Positions 6,801-33,810 of a stretch of 64,000 bases of DNA are shown here, piece after piece. The notes under the pieces are model-generated. The model had not been told where the DNA came from. It saw nothing but the letters and a program-made list of their open reading frames with translations, and did no database searches. The stretch spans positions 384,001 through 448,000 of the forward strand of contig OY762911.1 of the NCBI GenBank assembly GCA_963666565.1, given 5' to 3'. Numbering within the stretch: the stretch's first letter is position 1; each line of letters opens with the position of its first letter. The translations under genes were made by a program, and so were the position numbers. The stretch is from Thermoanaerobaculia bacterium (GTDB lineage: Bacteria > Acidobacteriota > Thermoanaerobaculia > Multivoradales > Multivoraceae).

Positions 6801-7516
6801 CGCTGCCCGCGGGCGCCCGGAGGCTGCGGATCGTGACGACCCGCTGGCTGCACTGGGACCGGGTCGCCTGGAGCACGGACCTGGGCGGCGCGGACGGAAC
6901 GGGCAGCGCGAGCGGCGCGAGCGGCGAAGGCCGCGTGGCTAGCACAGGCGGAGCGGGTAGCACGGCCGGCACGAGCGACAGGAGCGCCGCCGACGCGGGC
7001 GCCGTCGTGCAGGCGCGGCTGGACGCGGCGAGCGCGGACCTCTCGTACCGCGGATTCTCGGCGCCGACCCGGCCGGCCCCGAACGGTCCGCACCTGTTCG
7101 ACTACCAGCGCACCGGCACGGAATCTCCCTGGCTGCCCTTCCCCGGCCGCTACACCCGCTTCGGCGACGTTCGCGAACTGCTGACCGACATCGACGACCG
7201 CCAGGTCGTGATCGGCCCGGGCGACGAGATCCGCGTCCTGTTCGACGCCCGCGAGCTGCCGCCGCCCGCGCCCGGTCACGTCCGCACCGTGTTTCTGGAG
7301 AGCTTCGGCTGGGACAAGGACGCCGACCGCAACACCTGGGAGGCCGACAGCAACCTGCCGCTGCCATTCCAGGCGATGTCCGGCTACCCGTTCGCGCCCG
7401 GCGAGACGTATCCGCGGACGCCGAAACTCGACGCCTACCGCGCCGAGTGGCTGACCCGCGTCGTCGGCCCCGCGACGCCGTTCAGCCCCGCCGCACTGGG
7501 TGCGCGGGTCTTCTGA
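3809..7516 (+). CDS. Exported TPR + FG-GAP repeat + ASPIC/UnbV (CRTAC1-family) protein with a large C-terminal domain
   Basis: Signal peptide MPRNLPALLLLAAFAPAAALA; TPR-like helices; many DxDxDGDxD repeats; NNWLRVRLVG..HIGLG..VVWANG; then GSCPFLYAWDG domain. Real start is ATG 3809 inside ORF 1196..7516. Confidence 0.85.
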   Translation: MPRNLPALLLLAAFAPAAALAQPTEEQVRLHGIGYAQLENEREVEAEGTYRELVDLMPDEPLGHANLAVALLRQDRKDEALAAIERALELGGARADLLLIRADILQWTSRNEEALADYRRAARAAPDDPETQYALFRHTEIMSGPEAEADRRTAVDRLRRLRPDNLVVLLLSGEAALADGDRGSASDDYLRVRELIWQAQPVAERVVEEVLDALEADDPDRARSPARRVTNVMKGTSAWTSSLAEVYTNIQGIPVERFEDESPIEDFGLALPVRFRATRIDNAPAAGRALEVADFDGDGRPDIAWGVAGEGAEPPVARVAAGQREDAPDPNEDADPSSGARLELRRASTGLAAPGDAPETNARLLVAGDADNDRRLDLVAVGDPLAVWQIDAAAEIPRFADASDRFLTQPFAASAADLIDFDSDGDLDLAVVRTGGGPDLLRNVSGEGVFEGPLEAMGRESLPELEARPYHHLQATDADRDGDTDLLLAHDAGVLWLDNLRQGRFGERTPPASGGNLLGRLVGRLLGDDAESALATGTPVRVVRTADLDRDGMPEFVMAGDSTVVLRADEDGALAPFPLTPESVGLPAGATDLALLDADNDGRRDLAFVAGGEIRVLTQTSESGPEALEFRLARLSGLPRDAGFTAVRADDLDDDGDQDLVAAGASGLYRIENLDGSENNWLRVRLVGLDIGNQKNNVFGRGTTIEVKSERAYQYIEVDRPVTHIGLGNRRRPDLVRVVWANGVPQNRLNPGRNQTIVEEQVLKGSCPFLYAWDGEKIAFVTDLLWGAPLGMPLADGVWNGYDPDELVRVDGARTRDGFYDLRITEELWEAAYIDRVRLWVVDHPRDVEVASNLRIVPGRGHVGRPPDDVVSSAAVRPVVHAADGRGRDVTERVRARDEVYADGYERSRFQGHAAEPWTFTFDLGEAPEAPVRLWLDGWVFPADASLNLAIAQAVEHGGLEMVMTRLEVETADGWRTLLDPMGFPPGKTKMMVVDTPPLPAGARRLRIVTTRWLHWDRVAWSTDLGGADGTGSASGASGEGRVASTGGAGSTAGTSDRSAADAGAVVQARLDAASADLSYRGFSAPTRPAPNGPHLFDYQRTGTESPWLPFPGRYTRFGDVRELLTDIDDRQVVIGPGDEIRVLFDARELPPPAPGHVRTVFLESFGWDKDADRNTWEADSNLPLPFQAMSGYPFAPGETYPRTPKLDAYRAEWLTRVVGPATPFSPAALGARVF

Positions 7517-7635
7517 CCCGCTCCCGCCGCACTGGGTGCGCGGGTCTTCCGACCCGCTCCCGCCGCACTGGGTGCGCGGGTCTTCTGACCCGCTCCCGCC
7601 GCAGGCGGCCAGACGAAACGCGCCGCGAAGCGGCG
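7487..7635 (+). repeat. Three tandem 36-bp REP-like units plus tail; the first unit supplies the stop codon of the upstream CDS
   Basis: CCCGCCGCACTGGGTGCGCGGGTCTTCYGACCCGCT at 7487, 7523 and 7559. Confidence 0.9.
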
Positions 7636-25539: not shown

Positions 25540-25760
25540 GCGGACGGGACGACTCGGTGCCGGGCGAGGAGAGCCGCGGGGCGGGCAGGACGGCTCGGCT
25601 GCAGGTGGCGGGGGGCCGTTGAGCGAGCACGACGGCTCGGCTGCCGGCGGCGGGAAGCCGTTGAGCGAGCACGACGGCTCGGCTGCCGGCGGCGGGAAGC
25701 CGTTGAGCGAGCACGACGGCTCGGCTGCCGGCGGCGGGGGGCCGTTGAGCGAGCAGGACG
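25500..25760 (+). repeat. 42-bp tandem repeat across the pseudopilin/dut junction
   Basis: GCCGTTGAGCGAGCACGACGGCTCGGCTGCCGGCGGCGGGRR at 25615, 25657 and 25699, partial at 25741, with degenerate copies from about 25500. Confidence 0.9.
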
Positions 25761-26209
25761 CCGTCGACGTCCGGGTTCGCCTGCTGCCGCACGCGGCCGG
25801 CCTGCCGGAGCGGGCTTCCGCCGGGAGCGCCGGCTACGACCTGCGCGCCGCGACGTCGGAGCCGGTCCGGATCGAGCCCGGCACGCGCCGCCTGATCCCG
25901 ACCGGGCTTGTCCTCGGCCTGCCGCCGGGCCACGAGGCGCAGATCCGGCCGCGCAGCGGCCTCGCGTTCCGCCAGGGCCTCACCGTGCTGAACGCCCCCG
26001 GCACGATCGACAGCGACTACCGGGGCGAGGTGAAGCTGCTGCTCGTCAACCTGGGACACGAACCCATCACCGTCCAACGCGGCGAGCGGCTGGCGCAGAT
26101 GGTCGTCGCCGCCGTTCCCGAGATCGCGTTCCGCGAGGACGACGCGCTGGGCGCGCGGCCGGCGGCGGGAGGCCGGAACGACGGCGGTTTCGGCTCCACC
26201 GGCACCTGA
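25745..26209 (+). CDS. dut: dUTP diphosphatase
   Basis: [39 protein letters not shown] and [10 protein letters not shown]; in-frame TTG starts at 25619, 25661, 25703 and 25745. Confidence 0.96.
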
Positions 26210-26213
26210 CTGG

Positions 26214-26270
26214 CTGGGTGCGCGGGTCTTCCGACCTGCTGCCGCCGGAGGCGGCCGGAAAGACGCGCCG
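26214..26270 (+). repeat. Extended REP-like unit at the left edge of the island
   Basis: 50/57 identical to the reverse complement of 33748-33804. Confidence 0.85.
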
Positions 26271-26332
26271 GCCTTTGGCCGGCGGCCCTGTCGTCCGGTC
26301 CCTCAACTTCTGGTGCGCCATCTCGCCCACGA

Positions 26333-28492
26333 TCACGGTTCCCTCGGGCGGCACGCCTCGCGAAAGGCGGACGTATCCTGGAAGGCATCGGGCTCGCCCG
26401 GCGCCTTCGCATAGCGGCGTTCCACACCCGTTCGCACATCGTGCACCACCAGGTCGAGTTGAAGGTCGGTCGCGGAAGCCGCGGAAACCCAATGGTGGCC
26501 GTTGACTTCGCAGCCGTTCAGCACCTTCACCAGCACCTCCCAGTTCGCCGCCGTGAAGAAGGAGAAGACACCGGCTTCCGCTGTTCGTGCGTCGGAAACG
26601 AGCGCGGCGGCGCTTCCGCCGTCCGGCGCCGACCAGTCGAGCGTCACGCGATAGCGACCGTCCTGCAGGCACAGCGCGGTCGGCGCCGGCTCGCAAACCG
26701 GCCCCGCCGGCCGCGACTCGTAACTCCGGATGGCCGCGACCTGGAGTTCCCAGCGGCTCGCGGGCGCTTCCCGCATGCTGAGGCGCTTCGGACCAAAATG
26801 GTCCAGAACCCAATCGCGGCCCGCAGCGTCGAACGGCATCCACACATCGGGAGCGACCCGAAGGGCATACGCGCCCCGCGCGAGAGCCTCTTCTTCCCTG
26901 GTCGCGGATGGAAGCACCATGATGTTCACGCCACGCTCCTCAAGGACGTAACCCGGCGGCGGCGTTCGGTCGTGGGCCATCAGTCGCTCGCTGTTAGGCC
27001 GCACCACCGGGTTGCGCGCCACCACCCCGTCCACCAGACCATGTCCGTCCACGACCCTCAGATCCGGCAGGTAGTAGGACTGGATGCCCAGGGCGCCGGT
27101 CGCCGTCACGGCGTCCGCTGGAAACGCGCCCCGTTCCAGGTGGCGGTAGTCCGCCCATTCCTTCAGCTTGAGTTTGGCGGCCTCCCGGTGTTCCGCGAAG
27201 CGCAGTCCCACCAGTTGCCGCGTCATTCGGCCGCGAAGCTCGTTCGAGATCGAGGCGAGAACCCTCATGCCGGGTGCCGCCAGCAGCCAACCCGCGTTCT
27301 CTGGATTCACTTCCGGGTGGAACCGCTCCTGATAGTCGCCGATGCCAGCGCCCTGGAACAGCAGGTGGCCCTGCAGCGCACCGGCGTAGAAGAGTGTCGG
27401 TACGAACAGGACGACGGCACAGACGCCGGGAACCGGCCGCAGGTTCATGGCCCGCGCCGACCGGATCCGGCGCAGCAGGTCTGCCGCCGCGGAACCGAGA
27501 TGAACGATCCCCGACGCCGCCGGAACCGCCAGCAGCGGCCAGTAGAAGTCCAGTGGCCGGTACTCGAAGTAGTCCCCGCCGAGCCGGAACACGTAGGCCA
27601 TGTGCGGCAAGATGCATGCGAACGGTAGTGCGAGGCGAAGATCGCCGCGCTCCCGCCACGCGCGTCGCATGGCCACGACCGCCAGCGGCATCAGCAGATA
27701 GAGCCCGGTCTCTATCGCCGCGGCCCACAGGTAGTTGAAGCCGGACTCGTACCAGGGCCGAACGTGTTTGGCGTAGTAAGTGTTCGGCAGCCACTCGCCG
27801 TAGTAGCCGTACCGGAACAGGAACTGCGCCCCGACGAAGGCGACGAACGGCAGGATGAGCCAACCCAGCTCCCTGAGAGCGACCCGGGACCGTTCGGCAG
27901 CGAGGCTCCGCTGCACCACGAACCAGCCGAAGCAACAAGCTGCGATCAAGAGTCCCTCCGGCCGCGTGTACGCCGCTGCCACGAGGCTGAGCGAAACGCC
28001 CAGCAGCCCCCGGCGACTGTCGGAGCGGACGCTCAGGAACACGACCGCCAGCACGACGAAGAAAGTGAACTGCCGCGTCTCCAGTCCGCCGCCCGAAGTC
28101 CACACCGCAAAGGTGGCACTGGTGCACAGGAGGCCCAGCGCCATCCAGATCACGAGTCCGCGCCGCCGGAGTCCAGGGAGCAAGGCCGTCCACCAGGCGG
28201 TTGCCGCCAGCGTGCCGATCGTGCAAAGCACGGACAGCCAAGGCGCGACATGCTCGGGGCGCAGCCCGAAGACCTTCCAGAGGGCCGTCAGCTTGAGCAC
28301 CCACAGGAGGTTCGTGTAGCCCTCCACCCGCTCTCCGGGATTGAAGACGAGGCCGCGTCCCTCCACCAGATTGCGGACGTACCGAAAGCTGATGAAGGCG
28401 TCGTCGCACAAGAACCAGGCCGCCGACGCCAGCCAAGCCAGCAGCACCAGCCAGAGCAAGTTGCCGCCGAGAAGCGCAAGCCTCCGCGCCAT
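26333..28492 (-). CDS. Polytopic GT-C-like (AftB-like) membrane glycosyltransferase fused to a C-terminal extracytoplasmic domain
   Basis: DDAFISFRY..N..G.GLVFN.GERVEGYT, GLET, TRPEG, YYG..LPNTYYAK and GGD; C-terminal C..ALCL..GRYRV..W..F.FF..N.EVLVKVLNGC..NG..WV. Confidence 0.75.
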   Translation of the reverse strand: MARRLALLGGNLLWLVLLAWLASAAWFLCDDAFISFRYVRNLVEGRGLVFNPGERVEGYTNLLWVLKLTALWKVFGLRPEHVAPWLSVLCTIGTLAATAWWTALLPGLRRRGLVIWMALGLLCTSATFAVWTSGGGLETRQFTFFVVLAVVFLSVRSDSRRGLLGVSLSLVAAAYTRPEGLLIAACCFGWFVVQRSLAAERSRVALRELGWLILPFVAFVGAQFLFRYGYYGEWLPNTYYAKHVRPWYESGFNYLWAAAIETGLYLLMPLAVVAMRRAWRERGDLRLALPFACILPHMAYVFRLGGDYFEYRPLDFYWPLLAVPAASGIVHLGSAAADLLRRIRSARAMNLRPVPGVCAVVLFVPTLFYAGALQGHLLFQGAGIGDYQERFHPEVNPENAGWLLAAPGMRVLASISNELRGRMTRQLVGLRFAEHREAAKLKLKEWADYRHLERGAFPADAVTATGALGIQSYYLPDLRVVDGHGLVDGVVARNPVVRPNSERLMAHDRTPPPGYVLEERGVNIMVLPSATREEEALARGAYALRVAPDVWMPFDAAGRDWVLDHFGPKRLSMREAPASRWELQVAAIRSYESRPAGPVCEPAPTALCLQDGRYRVTLDWSAPDGGSAAALVSDARTAEAGVFSFFTAANWEVLVKVLNGCEVNGHHWVSAASATDLQLDLVVHDVRTGVERRYAKAPGEPDAFQDTSAFREACRPREP

Positions 28493-28612
28493 GACGTGCA
28501 TGCTCCGTCGACGGCTTCGCAAACTGACCTCGCGAGAACTCCGCAGGATGCCGTGCGACCCTATCGATTCGTACGAACCAGAACCACTGCCGTTTTCGCG
28601 TCAATGCCGAAG

Positions 28613-30187
28613 TCAGATTCTCCCTGTGCAGAGTTCTGCCACGCCGACACCTCGGTTAGGCGACAAACCAAGCCGCGATTCCGCCCTCTGTGCCGACGAA
28701 ACTGCCGCTACATCCGGTTCCAACCAGCCGTGCTTCTCCAGAATGCGGCGAGCCTTCGGGAATCGCTCCGTCGACCAGAACTCGAACACGCCATCGAGAA
28801 TGCCGCGAGAAACAGTGTCCAGCCGCTCCACTAGAGCGAGAGTCTCCTCTAATTCCTCGCCAATCGACGAAATCAGACGTCGAGCCCGTAGCGCCGCATC
28901 GGACGAGCCTCCTGGAACCGACGCGACATCAACATCGAACCGCGCCAGAACGCCGCACTGAAGTTCCACTTCTTCCACCAGCCCGGCGAGCGACTTCAAC
29001 ACGCGCGCACCGACATCCGCCTCGATCGAACGCAAGGACGGATCGTCCGGCCCGGCATACAGCAGATTCAGTTTCTCGAAACAGGCGCCCTCGAGCGACC
29101 CACAGTAGAGGTCGAAGACCCGCCTCCCGGTTTCCTCGGCCAAGGGCCGCTCATTCGCCAAGAGCGCCACTGCAGCCTCAAAGCCGTCGGAAGGGGGACA
29201 CGGCCCGGGCCGGCAGATGTCACGAGGCCCAAGCTCCGTCGTCGCTTCTGCCGTCAGAGCCAAGGCCACGCGCCGAACCCCGAGCGGGAGTACTCGGCCC
29301 TCGACCGGAAGACCGGACTCGCCGAGTTCATAGCGCGCTATGCCCATACCGAACAGGTTCCAAGGTGCCTCGACCCCAACCACCTCCGCCGGAAGACCTC
29401 GAGCCTCCCGGACCTTCACCCAGTTCGCCCAAGCCGCTGCACGCGTCTCTTCGGTGCCCCACTCCTTCTGCAAGAAGGCGAGGCCTTGAAGGAGTAGGCC
29501 GAGCACTTCATCGGAACCGATCGTGCCCGCACGCCGCCTTCGGTCGTACTCTTCCTCCAGGATCTCGGGCAAAGCCGCCTGGACCCGCCTCATCTGACTC
29601 GCGAACACGAGTGCCAAGCGCCTAGCCTCGTTCTCCGTCACGGATTCCGGCAACTCGGCGAGCAGTCCGTCGCCAGCTGCCCTGCTGCGTAGAGTCTCCA
29701 TGGTCGGAATCCAGTCCTCAAAGTTGCCGAGCAAGCCCTGAAAGGCACCCTTCACGTCTTCTGCGGACCTGTGAGTTTCCGCCGCGAACTCGATCCTCTC
29801 CGGGCTTGGGTAGAGCGGGATCAAGAACACGACAAACTGGCTAACGGCCTCACGTGCTTCAGGACGGCCCCTCGCCAGAACTTCCGTAAACCACGCTGCA
29901 ACGTCCACGTCCTCTCGAAAGAACGCTCCGACCGAATCGACCGGCCACTCGCCATCGAACGGACCGTAGAGCGCGGTCCCCAGCTCCCGCAAGGCCGCCT
30001 CCACGGTCGCCGCATCCTCGGATAGAACATCCCGGAGCACCCACTCGCTAGCCGCGGCACCTCCTGGCGAAGGCGTCATGGACGTCAACAGGACGACCAT
30101 TATGACCTCACGTATCCATGCACGCCTGGGCACCCTCAGGCCAGCCCATGACCCCCGCCGCAGACTCCCTTCTATCGTTGGCCACAT
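28613..30187 (-). CDS. Hypothetical exported, probably alpha-helical protein; partner of the Ig-repeat protein
   Basis: Long ORF with atypical codon usage; AGGAGG six nt before ATG 30187, which overlaps the upstream stop; signal-peptide-like N-terminus. Confidence 0.7.
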   Translation of the reverse strand: MWPTIEGSLRRGSWAGLRVPRRAWIREVIMVVLLTSMTPSPGGAAASEWVLRDVLSEDAATVEAALRELGTALYGPFDGEWPVDSVGAFFREDVDVAAWFTEVLARGRPEAREAVSQFVVFLIPLYPSPERIEFAAETHRSAEDVKGAFQGLLGNFEDWIPTMETLRSRAAGDGLLAELPESVTENEARRLALVFASQMRRVQAALPEILEEEYDRRRRAGTIGSDEVLGLLLQGLAFLQKEWGTEETRAAAWANWVKVREARGLPAEVVGVEAPWNLFGMGIARYELGESGLPVEGRVLPLGVRRVALALTAEATTELGPRDICRPGPCPPSDGFEAAVALLANERPLAEETGRRVFDLYCGSLEGACFEKLNLLYAGPDDPSLRSIEADVGARVLKSLAGLVEEVELQCGVLARFDVDVASVPGGSSDAALRARRLISSIGEELEETLALVERLDTVSRGILDGVFEFWSTERFPKARRILEKHGWLEPDVAAVSSAQRAESRLGLSPNRGVGVAELCTGRI

Positions 30188-32412
30188 GAGTATCCTCCTT
30201 GGGGATGTTCGATGCACTCAAAGCGCCCTCTCTTGTTCTTTGGTGGAGTCAAGCACGCCAAGATCCGGGCCGGACTCTCTAATGTGTCGGCTGGCGGAGC
30301 CCAACTATACGCCGGTGTTCCTTCGATGTAGAGCTCGAAGGCAGGCATGCAGTCGTGGGCTATCTCGCCGTCGATGACCAGCCCCTCCGTGGCAGATGTC
30401 CGAAAGTCCAGTTCCACGCTGGCATTGATGTCCGGCGAGAACACAAGAGGATTTCCGCCCGCGAGTTCCAGGGCCAAGGCGGCCCCACCCGTCAAGGTTG
30501 TACTCCCCAACGTCCCGCTAAGCCGTTCCGCTCGGTGAAGACGATGACAGTCCCGTTCTTCGTCGTAGTCGTTGTCGTCGATAAGGCCATCAGCCAGAGT
30601 CGTTGCCTTGTGGAACAGTGTAGTCAGGCCCGCCCAGTAGGCCTCGCCCAGTAGCTGCAACGCGGACTCCTCAGAAGGCGGCACCAGAGCCAGCACCGCC
30701 TGAAGCCGGTAGGGATCAAGCGTCTTAACTGGATTCGTCGGCACGATTCGCGTCGGCGGACCCGCTGAGGGACCGCGATCGTCCCCACCGAAGATCATGG
30801 AAGCACCCCGACAAGTCGGCGACCGTACCGAGGGAACCCAGGCCGACGGAATGTAGGCCCGCAGGACGACGTCCAACCGTTCTGGCGGCCGAGACGGCGG
30901 TGGAGGTGGCGGCGGAGGCGGTGGAGGTGGCGGCGGTGGAGGTGGAGGCGGTGGTGATATCGGTTTGTCCGTAACGGTGATCTCGTCCTTGAAGACCAAG
31001 ATGCCGTCCACACAGTCCTGATCCTCCGATAGCTCAGTGTCGTCGTCGCAGCTTAGCACCTCGGTCTCGCCTCCAAGGGCCGGGATCGGTCCGGACGGTC
31101 GATCCGGCACGACGTACCGATAGCAGGCGCCGCGAAACGCGAAGTGGCCCGCGGGGCAGTTGACTATCGCGGCGACGGTCCAGGTACCCGTTCCTCCGAA
31201 GAAAGGATACACCCGCACGCTGTGCGACCCGGTCCCCAGTTCGCCGCTCCAGTGGTCGTCCTTCGTTCCGCTGCGATTTGAGCAGACGGAGCCACTGACG
31301 GAACAGTCGATGTCCTGGTCCATGCCGGTCAGCGAGACGTTCACGGTCTGGCGAGACGCCAACGTGAACGAGTAGGTCCGCGCGGCACTCTTGGTTTCGC
31401 TCGCATACACAAGCCCGACCCGCGTCTCCAGTTTGCGTCGCACCGGCTTCTGCGGCGGCGGTGGTGGCGGTGGTGGCGGTGGTGGCGGTTTCGCCGCCGC
31501 GGCCACAACGACGGTGAACGTCACCGAAGCCCTCGCTTTGTCCCGGTCGGAGGCCGTGTACGTGCTCAGGTAGGTCGTGTCGACTGGCACGGTCGGGAGC
31601 GTTCCTCTCGCGCGCCGCGTCGACGGGGTGAACGCGATCCCCGGCGGAAGACCCGACACGCGGTAGCTGTAGGGCGATCTGCCGCCAGATGCCGCCGGGA
31701 ACGCCGTGTCGATGACCCCGCCCGACGGCAGACGGAAGTCGGGAATGCTCGGCACGGACAAGGGCGGCGGCGCAGCTGCGGCAGCCACAACGACGGTGAA
31801 CGTGACCGAAGCGGCGGCGCCGTTCCGGTCCGAGACGGCGTACGCGACCAGGTAAGTGGTGTCGACCCACACCGTCGGCAGCGTTCCTCTCGCACGCCGC
31901 GTCGACGGGAAGAACGTGATCCCCGGCGGCAGACCGGACACGCTGTAGCTGTAGGGCGGCCTGCCGCCCGACGCGGCCGGGAACACCGTGTCGATGGCCC
32001 CGCCCGACGGTAGACGGAAGTCGGGAATGCTCGGCAAAGAGAGCGGCGGCGGCGAAGGCGCCACGACCGTGGCAGTGAACGTGACGGAAGCGCGGGCGCC
32101 GTCACGGTCCGCGACGAAGTAGGAGACCGTGTAGGTCGTGTCGACCCAGACCGTCGGCAGCGTTCCTCTCGCACGCCGCGTCGACGGGAAGAACGTGATC
32201 CCCGGCGGCAGACCGGACACGCTGTAGCTGTAGGGCGACCTGCCGCCCGACGCGGCCGGGAACACCGTGTCGATGACCCCGCCGGGCGGTAGCCGAAAGT
32301 TGGGAATGCTCGGCAGGAACAGCGCCGGCCGTTCCGAGGCCCGTGCGGCCAGGGGCGCCACGGCGGCCAGAACGAGGAAGAAGGACAGTACTGGTGTGCC
32401 AAGGCGCTTCAC
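30172..32412 (-). CDS. Exported protein: three He_PIG/putative Ig repeats, polyPro, PPC-like domain, Cys-rich linker, polyPro and a DUF3238-like C-terminal domain
   Basis: GGGAGG RBS and signal peptide; three copies of PAASGGRxPYSYxVSGLPPGI.F.P.TR..RGT.PT; C-terminal RAYIP..FGGDDRG..HDCMPAFELY. Confidence 0.8.
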   Translation of the reverse strand: MKRLGTPVLSFFLVLAAVAPLAARASERPALFLPSIPNFRLPPGGVIDTVFPAASGGRSPYSYSVSGLPPGITFFPSTRRARGTLPTVWVDTTYTVSYFVADRDGARASVTFTATVVAPSPPPLSLPSIPDFRLPSGGAIDTVFPAASGGRPPYSYSVSGLPPGITFFPSTRRARGTLPTVWVDTTYLVAYAVSDRNGAAASVTFTVVVAAAAAPPPLSVPSIPDFRLPSGGVIDTAFPAASGGRSPYSYRVSGLPPGIAFTPSTRRARGTLPTVPVDTTYLSTYTASDRDKARASVTFTVVVAAAAKPPPPPPPPPPPPQKPVRRKLETRVGLVYASETKSAARTYSFTLASRQTVNVSLTGMDQDIDCSVSGSVCSNRSGTKDDHWSGELGTGSHSVRVYPFFGGTGTWTVAAIVNCPAGHFAFRGACYRYVVPDRPSGPIPALGGETEVLSCDDDTELSEDQDCVDGILVFKDEITVTDKPISPPPPPPPPPPPPPPPPPPPPSRPPERLDVVLRAYIPSAWVPSVRSPTCRGASMIFGGDDRGPSAGPPTRIVPTNPVKTLDPYRLQAVLALVPPSEESALQLLGEAYWAGLTTLFHKATTLADGLIDDNDYDEERDCHRLHRAERLSGTLGSTTLTGGAALALELAGGNPLVFSPDINASVELDFRTSATEGLVIDGEIAHDCMPAFELYIEGTPAYSWAPPADTLESPARILACLTPPKNKRGRFECIEHPQGGYSCGQR
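31500..32320 (-). repeat. Three near-identical intragenic repeats of about 280 bp encoding the Ig-like domains
   Basis: GGGAATGCTCGGCA and long flanking blocks recur at about 31741, 32023 and 32302. Confidence 0.9.
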
Positions 32413-32444
32413 GATCCTCGCCTCCCGAGGTCATGTGGACGTCG

Positions 32445-32462
32445 AGATAAGGGCGATTGTCT
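32445..32462 (+). other. Putative tyrosine-recombinase core site (left), 18 bp
   Basis: AGATAA-GGGCGA-TTGTCT: imperfect 6-bp arms around a 6-bp asymmetric spacer; exact reverse complement of 32667-32684. Confidence 0.75.
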
Positions 32463-32644
32463 AAACAGAGAAAACGCTTGATTCGTGACTTGGTCGTCAC
32501 CTAGACTCCGGAGACCTCCTGTGAAGCCGAAAAAAGTGTCGGCGAGCCGCCCCTTGGTGCGGAAGGCACCGTCAATCGCGTCCTGGACACTGAGATCCAC
32601 CCGCTTCGGGACCCAGGAAGGCAGCCTCAGGAGAAGAGCGGGAC

Positions 32645-32673
32645 TTGACAAGCGCGATTTCCTGGCAGACAAT
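32645..32673 (+). promoter_or_regulatory. Candidate sigma70 promoter inside the putative invertible segment, currently facing the recombinase
   Basis: TTGACA (32645-32650), 17-nt spacer, GACAAT (32668-32673). Confidence 0.55.
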
Positions 32674-32684
32674 CGCCCTTATCT
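32667..32684 (-). other. Putative tyrosine-recombinase core site (right), inverted relative to the left site
   Basis: AGACAATCGCCCTTATCT; arms extend to GGCAGACAA-TCGCCC-TTATCTGCC. Confidence 0.75.
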
Positions 32685-32776
32685 GCCCTGACTGCCGACG
32701 GCCCAAAACCCCGTCGTCCTGACCTAGGATCGGCCCTCGTTGCAAGCGGAGTCCCCGGCCGAACCCCTCCCGGACG

Positions 32777-33649
32777 ATGGACAAGAGCGCCTACGCAGCC
32801 AACACCCGCAAGGCATACAGCCACGTCATCCAGCGCTTCAACGCGTTCCTGGGAGGCCGCGCTGCCGAGGACGCCACCATCGCGGCCTTTCTTGAGTCCG
32901 AGGCCGAACGCGGCCTCGCGCCCGCGTCCCTGTCGCTCGTCTCCGCGGCGATCGGGGCCCAGGCGCAGTCCGCCGGCGCGGACGATCCTCGGGGCCGGCT
33001 GACCTACCAGACCCTCGGACGCCTGAAGAGAACGCACAGCGCCCGCGGCGGGGGACAGGTTGCCGGGCTCAAGCGGGAGGACGTCGACGCAGTCGCGACG
33101 CTCGCGGCCACTGAAGGCACGACGGCCGGACTACGCGATGCCGCTCTTCTCCGCCTCGGTAGCGATTGCTTGCTGAGGATCAGCGAACTGGCAGCCGTTC
33201 ATGTGAAGCACCTCAAGCGCGCGGAGGACGGGAGCGGCTGCCTGAAAGTGCCCCGGAGCAAGACGGACCAGGAAGGCGAAGGCCAAACGCTCTACGTCTG
33301 CAAGGCGACGATGGCGGCGATCGCCGCCTGGCGGGAGGCCTCCGGGATCGGGTCCGGGCCTCTGTTCCGCGGCGTCTCCAAAGGAGGAACCGTCGGCGAG
33401 GCGGCGCTGACCGAGAGCGGGATGCGGAAGATCATCCGCCGACGGGCCTGGGCGGCGGGTTTCCGGAGGCGCGTGAGCGGACATTCCCTCCGCGTGGGCA
33501 GCGCTCAGTCGCTCGTCGCCAGAGGCGCCTCGACCGCCGAACTCATGCAGGCCGGGAGATGGAAAGACCCCAAGACAGCCGCCCGCTATGCCGCCAATGA
33601 ACTGGCGGCCAACGGCGCTGTCGCGAGGTTCTTCGAGGACGACCGCTGA
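32777..33649 (+). CDS. Cre-like tyrosine recombinase
   Basis: N-terminal SAM-like domain (ANTRKAY); catalytic R (LLRISEL), K (RSKTDQ.GEG), HxxR (SGHSLRVG), W (AGRW) and Y (ARY). Confidence 0.93.
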   Translation: MDKSAYAANTRKAYSHVIQRFNAFLGGRAAEDATIAAFLESEAERGLAPASLSLVSAAIGAQAQSAGADDPRGRLTYQTLGRLKRTHSARGGGQVAGLKREDVDAVATLAATEGTTAGLRDAALLRLGSDCLLRISELAAVHVKHLKRAEDGSGCLKVPRSKTDQEGEGQTLYVCKATMAAIAAWREASGIGSGPLFRGVSKGGTVGEAALTESGMRKIIRRRAWAAGFRRRVSGHSLRVGSAQSLVARGASTAELMQAGRWKDPKTAARYAANELAANGAVARFFEDDR

Positions 33650-33747
33650 CAGCCCGACACGCGCCACACGTTCCCAGGGCAGGACGTGAGCCTTGCGGTT
33701 GAGCCAAGTCTCGGGGCGAAGCAGCAGGCGCAATCGCCGCCGCTTCG

Positions 33748-33804
33748 CGGCGCACTTTTCTGGCCGCCTCCGGCGGCAGCGGGTCAGAGGACCCGCGCAC
33801 CCAG
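33748..33804 (-). repeat. Extended REP-like unit at the right edge of the island
   Basis: Inverted counterpart of 26214-26270. Confidence 0.85.
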
Positions 33805-33810
33805 TGGCCG

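Follow-up and report, generated by a model that had tools for sequence, protein, structure and literature searches.

A candidate invertible promoter element beside a Cre/TnpS-like tyrosine recombinase in an uncultured acidobacterial lineage

Our analyses concerned a 64,000-nucleotide stretch of a Thermoanaerobaculia bacterium genome (contig OY762911.1, positions 384,001 to 448,000; hereafter the window, whose own numbering is used throughout) and, within it, the gap between two divergent genes. To the right of the gap lies the gene for a Cre/TnpS-like tyrosine recombinase of 290 residues (32777..33649, plus strand). To its left lies the first gene of a cargo operon, which encodes a secreted 746-residue protein with three He_PIG immunoglobulin (Ig) repeats (30172..32412, minus strand). 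The gap itself holds a pair of 18-nt sites, a left, Ig-proximal core site (32445..32462, plus strand) that lies 32 nt upstream of the GTG start codon of the Ig gene, and a right, recombinase-proximal core site (32667..32684, minus strand) that is its exact reverse complement. The sites enclose a proposed invertible segment of 204 bp (32463..32666), and between the right site and the recombinase gene runs a predicted transcript leader of about 95 nt (32685..32776, plus strand) with no promoter-like site of its own.

The earlier note on this DNA had described two identical inverted 18-mers 204 bp apart, and this description was borne out. The repeat AGATAAGGGCGATTGTCT occupies 32445-32462 and a second copy, in reverse complement, occupies 32667-32684; the two are 100% complementary, with 204 nt enclosed, and complementarity within the segment is confined to its 18-nt ends. 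Searches allowing up to three mismatches recovered only these two copies in the window, compared to 0.00 expected from 100 shuffles, and in the whole genome (4,786,144 bases in one contig) the sole additional match was an unrelated site with three mismatches. Each 18-mer reads 6-6-6 as AGATAA / GGGCGA / TTGTCT, with arms that are complementary at 5/6 positions and an asymmetric center, in agreement with the proposed imperfect palindrome around a 6-bp asymmetric spacer. That the pair is a chance or neutral repeat devoid of function is extremely improbable: the shortness of the repeat, and nothing else, favors it, against an expectation of 0 in shuffles and a position that is conserved in 18 homologous loci with co-varying centers, as set out below.

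The segment contains further sequence features. A CGCTTG motif lies 12 nt inward of both sites, as previously noted (32475-32480, and as CAAGCG at 32649-32654, where it overlaps the -35 element described below); no counterpart was found at that offset in 18 aligned homologous loci, and we treat the motif as a local feature. A palindrome-like motif, GGCC-A(A/G)AA(Y)-GGC(C), occurs in most of the same 18 loci, at a distance of about 70 nt from the -35 on its upstream side and in constant orientation (here in the 32525-32545 region), and an accessory or architectural protein could bind there. A sigma-54 promoter reading of the GGCC-AAAAY-GGC sequence near the left end was rejected, as the spacing, judged by eye, is one base off. 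Likewise, a small open reading frame (ORF) for 68 residues that crosses the right site (32485-32691) was set aside, as the inner segments cannot be aligned as coding DNA across loci. No Rfam family reached its gathering score between 32000 and 34000.

A single promoter-like sequence was found in this region. The sigma-70-like sequence TTGACA-17-GACAAT (32645..32673, plus strand) matches the consensus at 10/12 positions and is the sole promoter-like match on either strand between 32300 and 32900 (0.0 in 50 shuffles). Its -35 element and spacer lie inside the segment, the right site supplies its -10 element in the form of the inner arm, and as assembled it reads toward the recombinase, with a transcription start predicted near 32680. 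The equivalent sequence facing the Ig side, GAATCA-N17-GACAAT, matches the -35 consensus at only 2/6 positions and fails the promoter scan; both sequences are thus as the earlier note gave them, and only the former passes. Because there is no second promoter-like site in 32300-32900, the Ig operon would be without a promoter in the assembled orientation.

The assignment of the adjacent enzyme as Cre-like was upheld by structural matches and by its catalytic residues. The protein, which is full length, matches PF00589, and all 17 of its PDB matches are to Cre or the engineered variant Tre, with Cre the best (E value 6e-17, residues 81-288). Identity to Cre is 28% over 67% of the protein, and the alignment pairs LLRISE with LLRIAE, SKT with TKT, GHSLRVG with GHSARVG, GRW with GGW and RYA with NYI. 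The catalytic set is R134, K162, H236, R239, W262 and Y271; across 30 homologs the first four residues are invariant and W262 and Y271 are at least 90% conserved. This set is of the Cre type, with a tryptophan at the fifth position in place of a second histidine. By comparison, the NCBIfam model for FimB/FimE/MrpI invertases (PRK09871) gave an E value of 0.0059 and 16.1 bits against a cut-off of 222, so that the enzyme falls outside that family, and Xer/XerA models scored below their cut-offs (35-39 bits versus 220-335). Nor does the enzyme classify as an integron integrase: the XerA/integron-integrase model gave 39 bits against a cut-off of 220, and the cargo is a 6-kb three-gene operon and not a set of cassettes. 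The recombinase is present (E value ≤1e-40) in 26 of 41 congeners, often in multiple copies or tandem arrays, and in none of 15 genomes from 12 other genera of the family. At an E value ≤1e-3, its homologs number 1634. Its closest homologs come from metagenome-assembled genomes (MAGs) titled Candidatus Multivorans, Thermoanaerobaculia or Acidobacteria.

For comparison among homologs, loci were oriented on the recombinase and duplicates were removed, which left 26 distinct loci at least 60% identical with enough upstream DNA. The site pair was looked for upstream of these recombinases, as the earlier note had suggested, and was found, with both sites in the same layout, in 18 of the 26. Three of the others lack TTGACA at -200..-100, and five lack a matching left site, four of these being deletion variants and one having a single mismatch in the center. 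Site-specific deletion was considered for the loci without a left site (L010, L011, L014, L015, L021) and rejected, as the junctions fall at differing places in the segment or leader and thus resemble ordinary deletions. A third copy of the core was absent within ±3 kb at each locus and within 14 kb at our own locus, where the sequence CAATCGCC, which lies downstream of the recombinase and matches over 8 nt, was rejected as a third site because it is at chance level. The conserved layout consists of the Ig start codon and ribosome-binding site, the left site, about 150-220 bp, a GGGGnTTGACA block that is conserved across the alignment of the 18 loci, a 16- or 17-nt spacer, the right site, a leader of 95-150 nt and the recombinase. 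The first arm of the right site is -10-like, and overlap between this site and the -10 is common to all 18 loci.

The centers of the two sites co-vary between loci. Specifically, the 9-nt centers of the left and right sites are identical in 17/18 loci, nine different centers occur between loci, and the centers match in 38/306 left/right pairings drawn from different loci. The arms are 57% identical within a locus. Position by position, left and right agree in 94-100% of loci across the central 9 nt and in 22-72% at arm positions, and the same central 9 nt are variable between loci (entropy up to 1.57 bits). Tyrosine recombinases need matching centers between exchanging sites, whereas under a repressor it is the arms that would be constrained and the centers that could vary. 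Co-varying centers combined with loose arms fit a requirement that crossover regions be homologous, and not recognition by a protein. These data bear on an alternative in which the sites are fixed operators, such that the recombinase represses its own promoter from the right site and the Ig operon from the left site, perhaps by looping the 204 bp, with no present-day inversion. The overlap of the right site with the -10 in every locus fits such operators, as does the finding, described in passages of PMC7157771, that resolution sites of the Tn3 family double as operators. Operators would, however, need conserved arms, and it is the centers, over nine different cores, that are matched here.

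Among 63 loci with more distant recombinases (38-52% identity), any inverted repeat of at least 13/14 was present in 6, and a similar layout was evident only in L174 and, loosely, in L173. The L174 locus, from a member of the Poribacteria with a 43% identical recombinase, has the same design, with TTGACA-17-site and an inverted partner site 282 nt upstream.

A copy that is inverted at the predicted sites was found within the genus. A search of all 42 genomes of the genus with a promoter-plus-site motif returned 9 + 14 = 23 places, and a reversed-pattern control returned 0. By coordinates, 22 of the 23 lie directly upstream of a recombinase match on the same strand; the remaining copy, on contig C4 of genome G039 (G039:C4), faces an Ig gene. 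The 191-nt inner segment of G039:C4 aligns with that of a second copy in the same genome, G039:C13, at 157/195 positions (80.5%) when reversed and at 115/218 (52.8%) in the same orientation, and its outer flanks are collinear with those of G039:C13 (98/128 on the recombinase side and 106/123 on the Ig side). The breakpoints fall within a 13-nt core, GACAAATGCGATT, that each of the three G039 copies carries at either end; the two other copies, both intact modules, are 183/192 identical to each other and share one orientation. In G039:C4, TTGACA-17-GACAAT stands immediately upstream of the ribosome-binding site and GTG of the Ig gene. The flipped inner segment that the earlier note had envisaged in some homologous locus therefore exists. 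Among 38 loci examined for Ig paralogs without a recombinase, none of these paralogs was preceded by the promoter-site motif, and 11/11 motif matches were on the recombinase side.

At our own locus, orientation was judged on assembled Logan contigs of four public runs, a type of assembly that drops rare variants and could miss a minority orientation. Runs X1, X2 and X4, which contain the same organism, each yielded one 1540-nt contig that covers 32246-33400 with zero differences and in the reference orientation. Run X5, from a relative, yielded a contig over 32287-33400 with 74 differences, also in the reference orientation; its differences listed up to 32549 include 32438, 32444 and 32463, and none lies inside the left 18-mer. 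The single orientation in the contigs of these four runs, together with the shared orientation of 22 of the 23 genus copies, would suit fixed operators. Against them stands the existence of a copy inverted exactly at the sites, and autorepression, which is what they would add, is compatible with a switch and already forms part of the reading that we favor. We therefore regard fixed operators as an unlikely explanation of the locus.

Taken together, we consider it likely that the locus is an invertible promoter element, or inverton, on which the neighboring Cre/TnpS-like tyrosine recombinase acts. What the sequences show directly is the pair of sites with its conservation and co-variation, a single copy that is inverted in nature, and a catalytic set that is intact. 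That the enzyme performs the inversion, that it does so in the present genome and that transcription is affected are what we infer from them, and comparison of sequences lends good support to invertibility and promoter re-aiming. In the proposed mechanism, each 18-mer would be a core site whose two 6-nt arms bind recombinase monomers around the crossover region, with the central 9 nt as the part that must match between sites. Strand exchange between the inverted sites would then flip the 204 bp. Because the -35 and spacer lie in the segment and the -10 is formed by an inner site arm, the whole promoter would travel with the segment. In the assembled state, the promoter would read across the right site into the leader and recombinase gene; in the flipped state, transcription would cross the left site, 32 nt ahead of the cargo operon. 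In this way, either the invertase or the cargo would be expressed, and the recombinase, when bound at its own -10, would probably repress itself.

Several observations weigh against this interpretation. The promoter is predicted only, by its match to the consensus. The count of 17 of 18 matching centers is partly circular, as each left site was picked for having the closest similarity to the right core, although a chance match at ≥9/10 is by our own estimate expected about 0.01 times per locus and all left sites adjoin the Ig start. The inverted copy G039:C4 is decayed: its recombinase keeps only residues 1-43 and 234-288, and its Ig gene is in two frames, which may have arisen by decay or by misassembly of a G run. 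The inversion could thus be a single old event or, conceivably, one that was not enzymatic. Neither a flipped form nor a strand-change joint at our own locus was present in the assembled contigs of X1, X2, X4 and X5. Moreover, frequent unbiased switching should give mixed consensus orientations, whereas 22 of the 23 genus copies share one, so that the promoter-on-recombinase state would dominate the sampled populations if the switch is active. If the flipped state silences the invertase, cells should accumulate in that state, yet the bias runs in the other direction. The model must therefore be supplemented with autorepression at the right site, directional arms or selection against cargo-on cells; direction-specific flanking sequences are described for FimE in passages of PMC6083910. 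Thus, the proposal that the 18-mers are core sites, that recombination inverts the 204 bp and that the -35 moves to the Ig operon has gained comparative support (the layout in 18 of 26 loci, the matching centers and the inverted copy), with our own locus seen in one orientation in contigs. The further suggestion of a phase-variation switch, as far as frequent reversal is meant, has the uniform orientation of 22 of the 23 genus copies against it.

The switch and its recombinase are part of a 7.6-kb island that also carries the cargo (26211..33809; G+C 0.60-0.68 compared to 0.71 for the window). The island is flanked by a dUTPase gene (25619-26209, plus strand) and an AlgH-like gene (from 33811, minus strand), which are a few bases apart in three congeners that were compared as empty sites; coordinates agree in other congeners. 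This junction (26210/26211 and 33809/33810; L197-L200) is a variable spot, with other insertions in congeners of about 10 kb (G043), 12 kb (G040), 4 kb (G035) and 5 kb (G027). In G040, a truncated recombinase copy, 79% identical, adjoins AlgH, and in G043 the spot is occupied by the same cargo genes with their order permuted, without the recombinase and without a clear switch remnant. Inverted repeats of about 48 nt that flank the island (26214-26262 / 33755-33806) resembled Tn3-type ends with a 4-5-bp duplication and were rejected as such, as they belong to a repetitive extragenic palindromic (REP)-like element. The core of this element, CTGGGTGCGCGGGTCYTCYGACC, has 891 genome copies (474 forward and 417 reverse, with ≤3 mismatches), compared to 0 for a reversed-pattern control. 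It often occurs in runs spaced 26-36 nt and is also present, for example, at 7496-7590 (G000:C1:391496-391590); the island lies between two copies in inverted orientation. Another short tandem repeat, GCATTCCGGGGACCCCCT, is intergenic in several congeners (L198 8290-8345; upstream regions of L008 and L022).

The module also occurs in tandem. In G041 (L209/L210, G041:C1:3572000-3606000), three units of recombinase, switch and Ig gene follow one another with a period of about 6.65 kb, and tandem module arrays are also present in G042 (L211/L212, G042:C1:3498000-3536000). Some recombinases in the arrays are truncated, and some copies have Ig coding DNA directly next to the inner segment or the leader.

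Location on an island at a variable spot and arrangement in arrays with a period of about 6.65 kb are consistent with another alternative, namely that the sites are an rst-like resolution or mobility site and that the enzyme, instead of switching a promoter, uses it to resolve or mobilize the island or the tandem copies. The plasmid relatives of the recombinase speak for it too. We obtained 1223 matching plasmid records, all less than 60% identical and the best at most 32% identical, and the nearest annotated ones have a TnpT/TnpS-like layout with GATAA-N6-TTATC, an arm motif that they share with our core sites. In the two plasmid loci that were inspected, a gene for a DNA-binding protein of about 300 residues is separated by 145-170 bp from the recombinase gene, with GATAA-N6-TTATC just upstream of the latter, which agrees with the published organization of the tnpT-tnpS gap; these loci are called TnpS/TnpT by layout only, the records themselves reading "site-specific integrase" and "DNA-binding protein." Our locus lacks the partners that such a system would have. 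With two plasmid TnpT-like proteins as queries, no TnpT-like ORF was found in the window (best E value 3.8) or in 190 loci at an E value ≤1e-3, and the divergent neighbor of our recombinase is the secreted Ig-repeat protein and not TnpT. The Tn3 transposase PF01526 had 0 matches in the genome (97% complete), and the repeats at the island ends are the REP-like element with its hundreds of copies. In addition, there is no third core, deletion breakpoints lie away from the sites, and two complete inverted core sites are unneeded for resolution. A present role as a resolution or mobility site is hence quite unlikely. As an ancestor of our switch, on the other hand, an rst-type resolution site is likely, judging from the plasmid layout and its GATAA-N6-TTATC. 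The TnpS/rst-type site that the earlier note had offered as a fallback thus survives as ancestry, and its defining parts (TnpT, TnpA and transposon ends) were not found.

The operon that the flipped promoter would serve has three members. The Ig protein has a signal-peptide-like start, poly-Pro linkers and a Cys-rich C-terminal part; its gene begins with GTG behind a GGGAGG ribosome-binding site, and a homologous Ig gene is the divergent neighbor in related loci. Its Ig domains are encoded by three tandem DNA repeats of 279-282 nt (31502-32336) that are 78-86% identical, and their number could vary via slippage or recombination, independently of the switch. Elsewhere in the genome, outside the window, an 8357-residue open frame with many He_PIG-like repeats (G000:C1:2302846-2307642) shows a weak match (42% identity) to the N-terminal part of the Ig protein. 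The second cargo ORF (28613..30217, minus strand) encodes 534 residues from an uncertain start, with a third-position G+C content of 0.70, and had no significant match in any library tried. The third gene (26333..28522, minus strand) encodes a 729-residue multi-pass membrane protein that is an AftB-like GT-C glycosyltransferase; it matches AftB (PDB 9dlf) with an E value of 6.8e-8 over residues 25-294, and its Atlas neighbors include AftB_C clusters. It is plausible that the operon specifies a surface glycoprotein set.

Much work has been devoted to the invertible promoters of gut and urinary-tract bacteria, which are served by Fim-type, Xer-type or serine invertases. In function, our locus is closest to mrpI-mrpA and to fimS, hyxS and ipuS; by descent, it is nearest to Cre and the TnpS-like resolvases. 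With Cre/loxP of phage P1, it shares the catalytic motif pattern, an arm-spacer-arm organization with an asymmetric spacer and a site adjoining the recombinase gene. loxP has 13-nt arms and an 8-bp spacer, whereas the arms here are 6 nt and the matching center is 9 nt, and P1 carries a single lox site, used for cyclization and dimer resolution.

In Proteus mirabilis, a 252-bp element lies between mrpI and mrpA, and MrpI is its sole recombinase, according to passages of PMC9820224. As at our locus, a lone tyrosine recombinase gene stands beside a segment of about 250 bp that carries a promoter and has an inverted repeat at either end, with a surface-structure operon beyond. Unlike our Cre/TnpS-like enzyme, MrpI belongs to the FimB/FimE family; moreover, the moving promoter of our locus is also the only visible promoter of its recombinase, and both orientations are demonstrated for mrp, compared to one seen here. 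The Escherichia coli switches fimS (FimB/FimE), hyxS (FimX) and ipuS (IpuA/IpuB), as portions of PMC6083910 describe them, have inverted repeats of 9, 16 and 7 bp around an invertible promoter of about 260-314 bp, and sequences flanking the repeats confer directional bias on switches of this type. These resemble our locus in that short inverted repeats bound an invertible promoter beside recombinase genes, with an adhesin cargo. They differ in the recombinase clade and in that our -10 is inside the core site, a single promoter would serve our divergent invertase and cargo, and our element is island-borne and found in tandem arrays. In the Tn4651-type TnpS/TnpT-rst module, promoters, an accessory site and a core site lie between tnpT and tnpS (described in parts of PMC7157771 and PMC4619425). 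A Cre-like recombinase and a palindromic core site with promoters in the gap upstream of its gene are common to that module and our locus, in which, by contrast, there is no TnpT helper, TnpA or transposon end. In place of one core plus an accessory site, our locus has two complete inverted cores 204 bp apart, for which inversion and not resolution is the likely product. We found no published description of such an element, and neither "Acidobacteri" nor "sponge" occurs in the DeepInverton main text (supplements aside).

Recombinases 40-50% identical to ours occur, often several per genome, in MAGs of Poribacteria, Latescibacterota, Gamma- and Alphaproteobacteria, Spirochaetia, Chloroflexota, Dadabacteria, Trueperaceae and Flavobacteriales (loci L139-L193). 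This wide spread over phyla suggests horizontal transfer within one kind of community. From the lineages named in the homolog records, our guess would be a sponge-associated host; a further run, X6, is labeled sponge metagenome, and its share of only 0.20 gives no evidence of habitat.

Compared to known invertons, the locus is new in that its enzyme is Cre/TnpS-like, seemingly derived from a transposon resolution module, and in that it comes from an uncultured acidobacterial lineage. Its -10 lies within a core site, invertase and cargo would compete for one promoter, and the island multiplies into arrays. If the switch is active, this small Cre-like family, with at least nine natural distinct crossover cores, would possibly be useful as a source of orthogonal recombination sites, and the switch itself would provide a mechanism for surface variation, by way of the Ig-repeat protein and the glycosyltransferase, in unculturable symbionts. 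More tentatively, the locus may be a self-latching toggle on a mobile cassette, in which a flip to cargo-on shuts the invertase off and commits the cell; it would then act as a one-way differentiation latch and not as reversible phase variation, and the cassette of Ig gene, switch and recombinase would spread in the form of islands and tandem arrays, every one with a crossover core of its own. Should this doubtful possibility prove true, uncultured host-associated bacteria would gain a combinatorial, heritable choice of surface proteins, and the 40-50% identical recombinases of other phyla would represent the same device or its resolvase-like ancestor.

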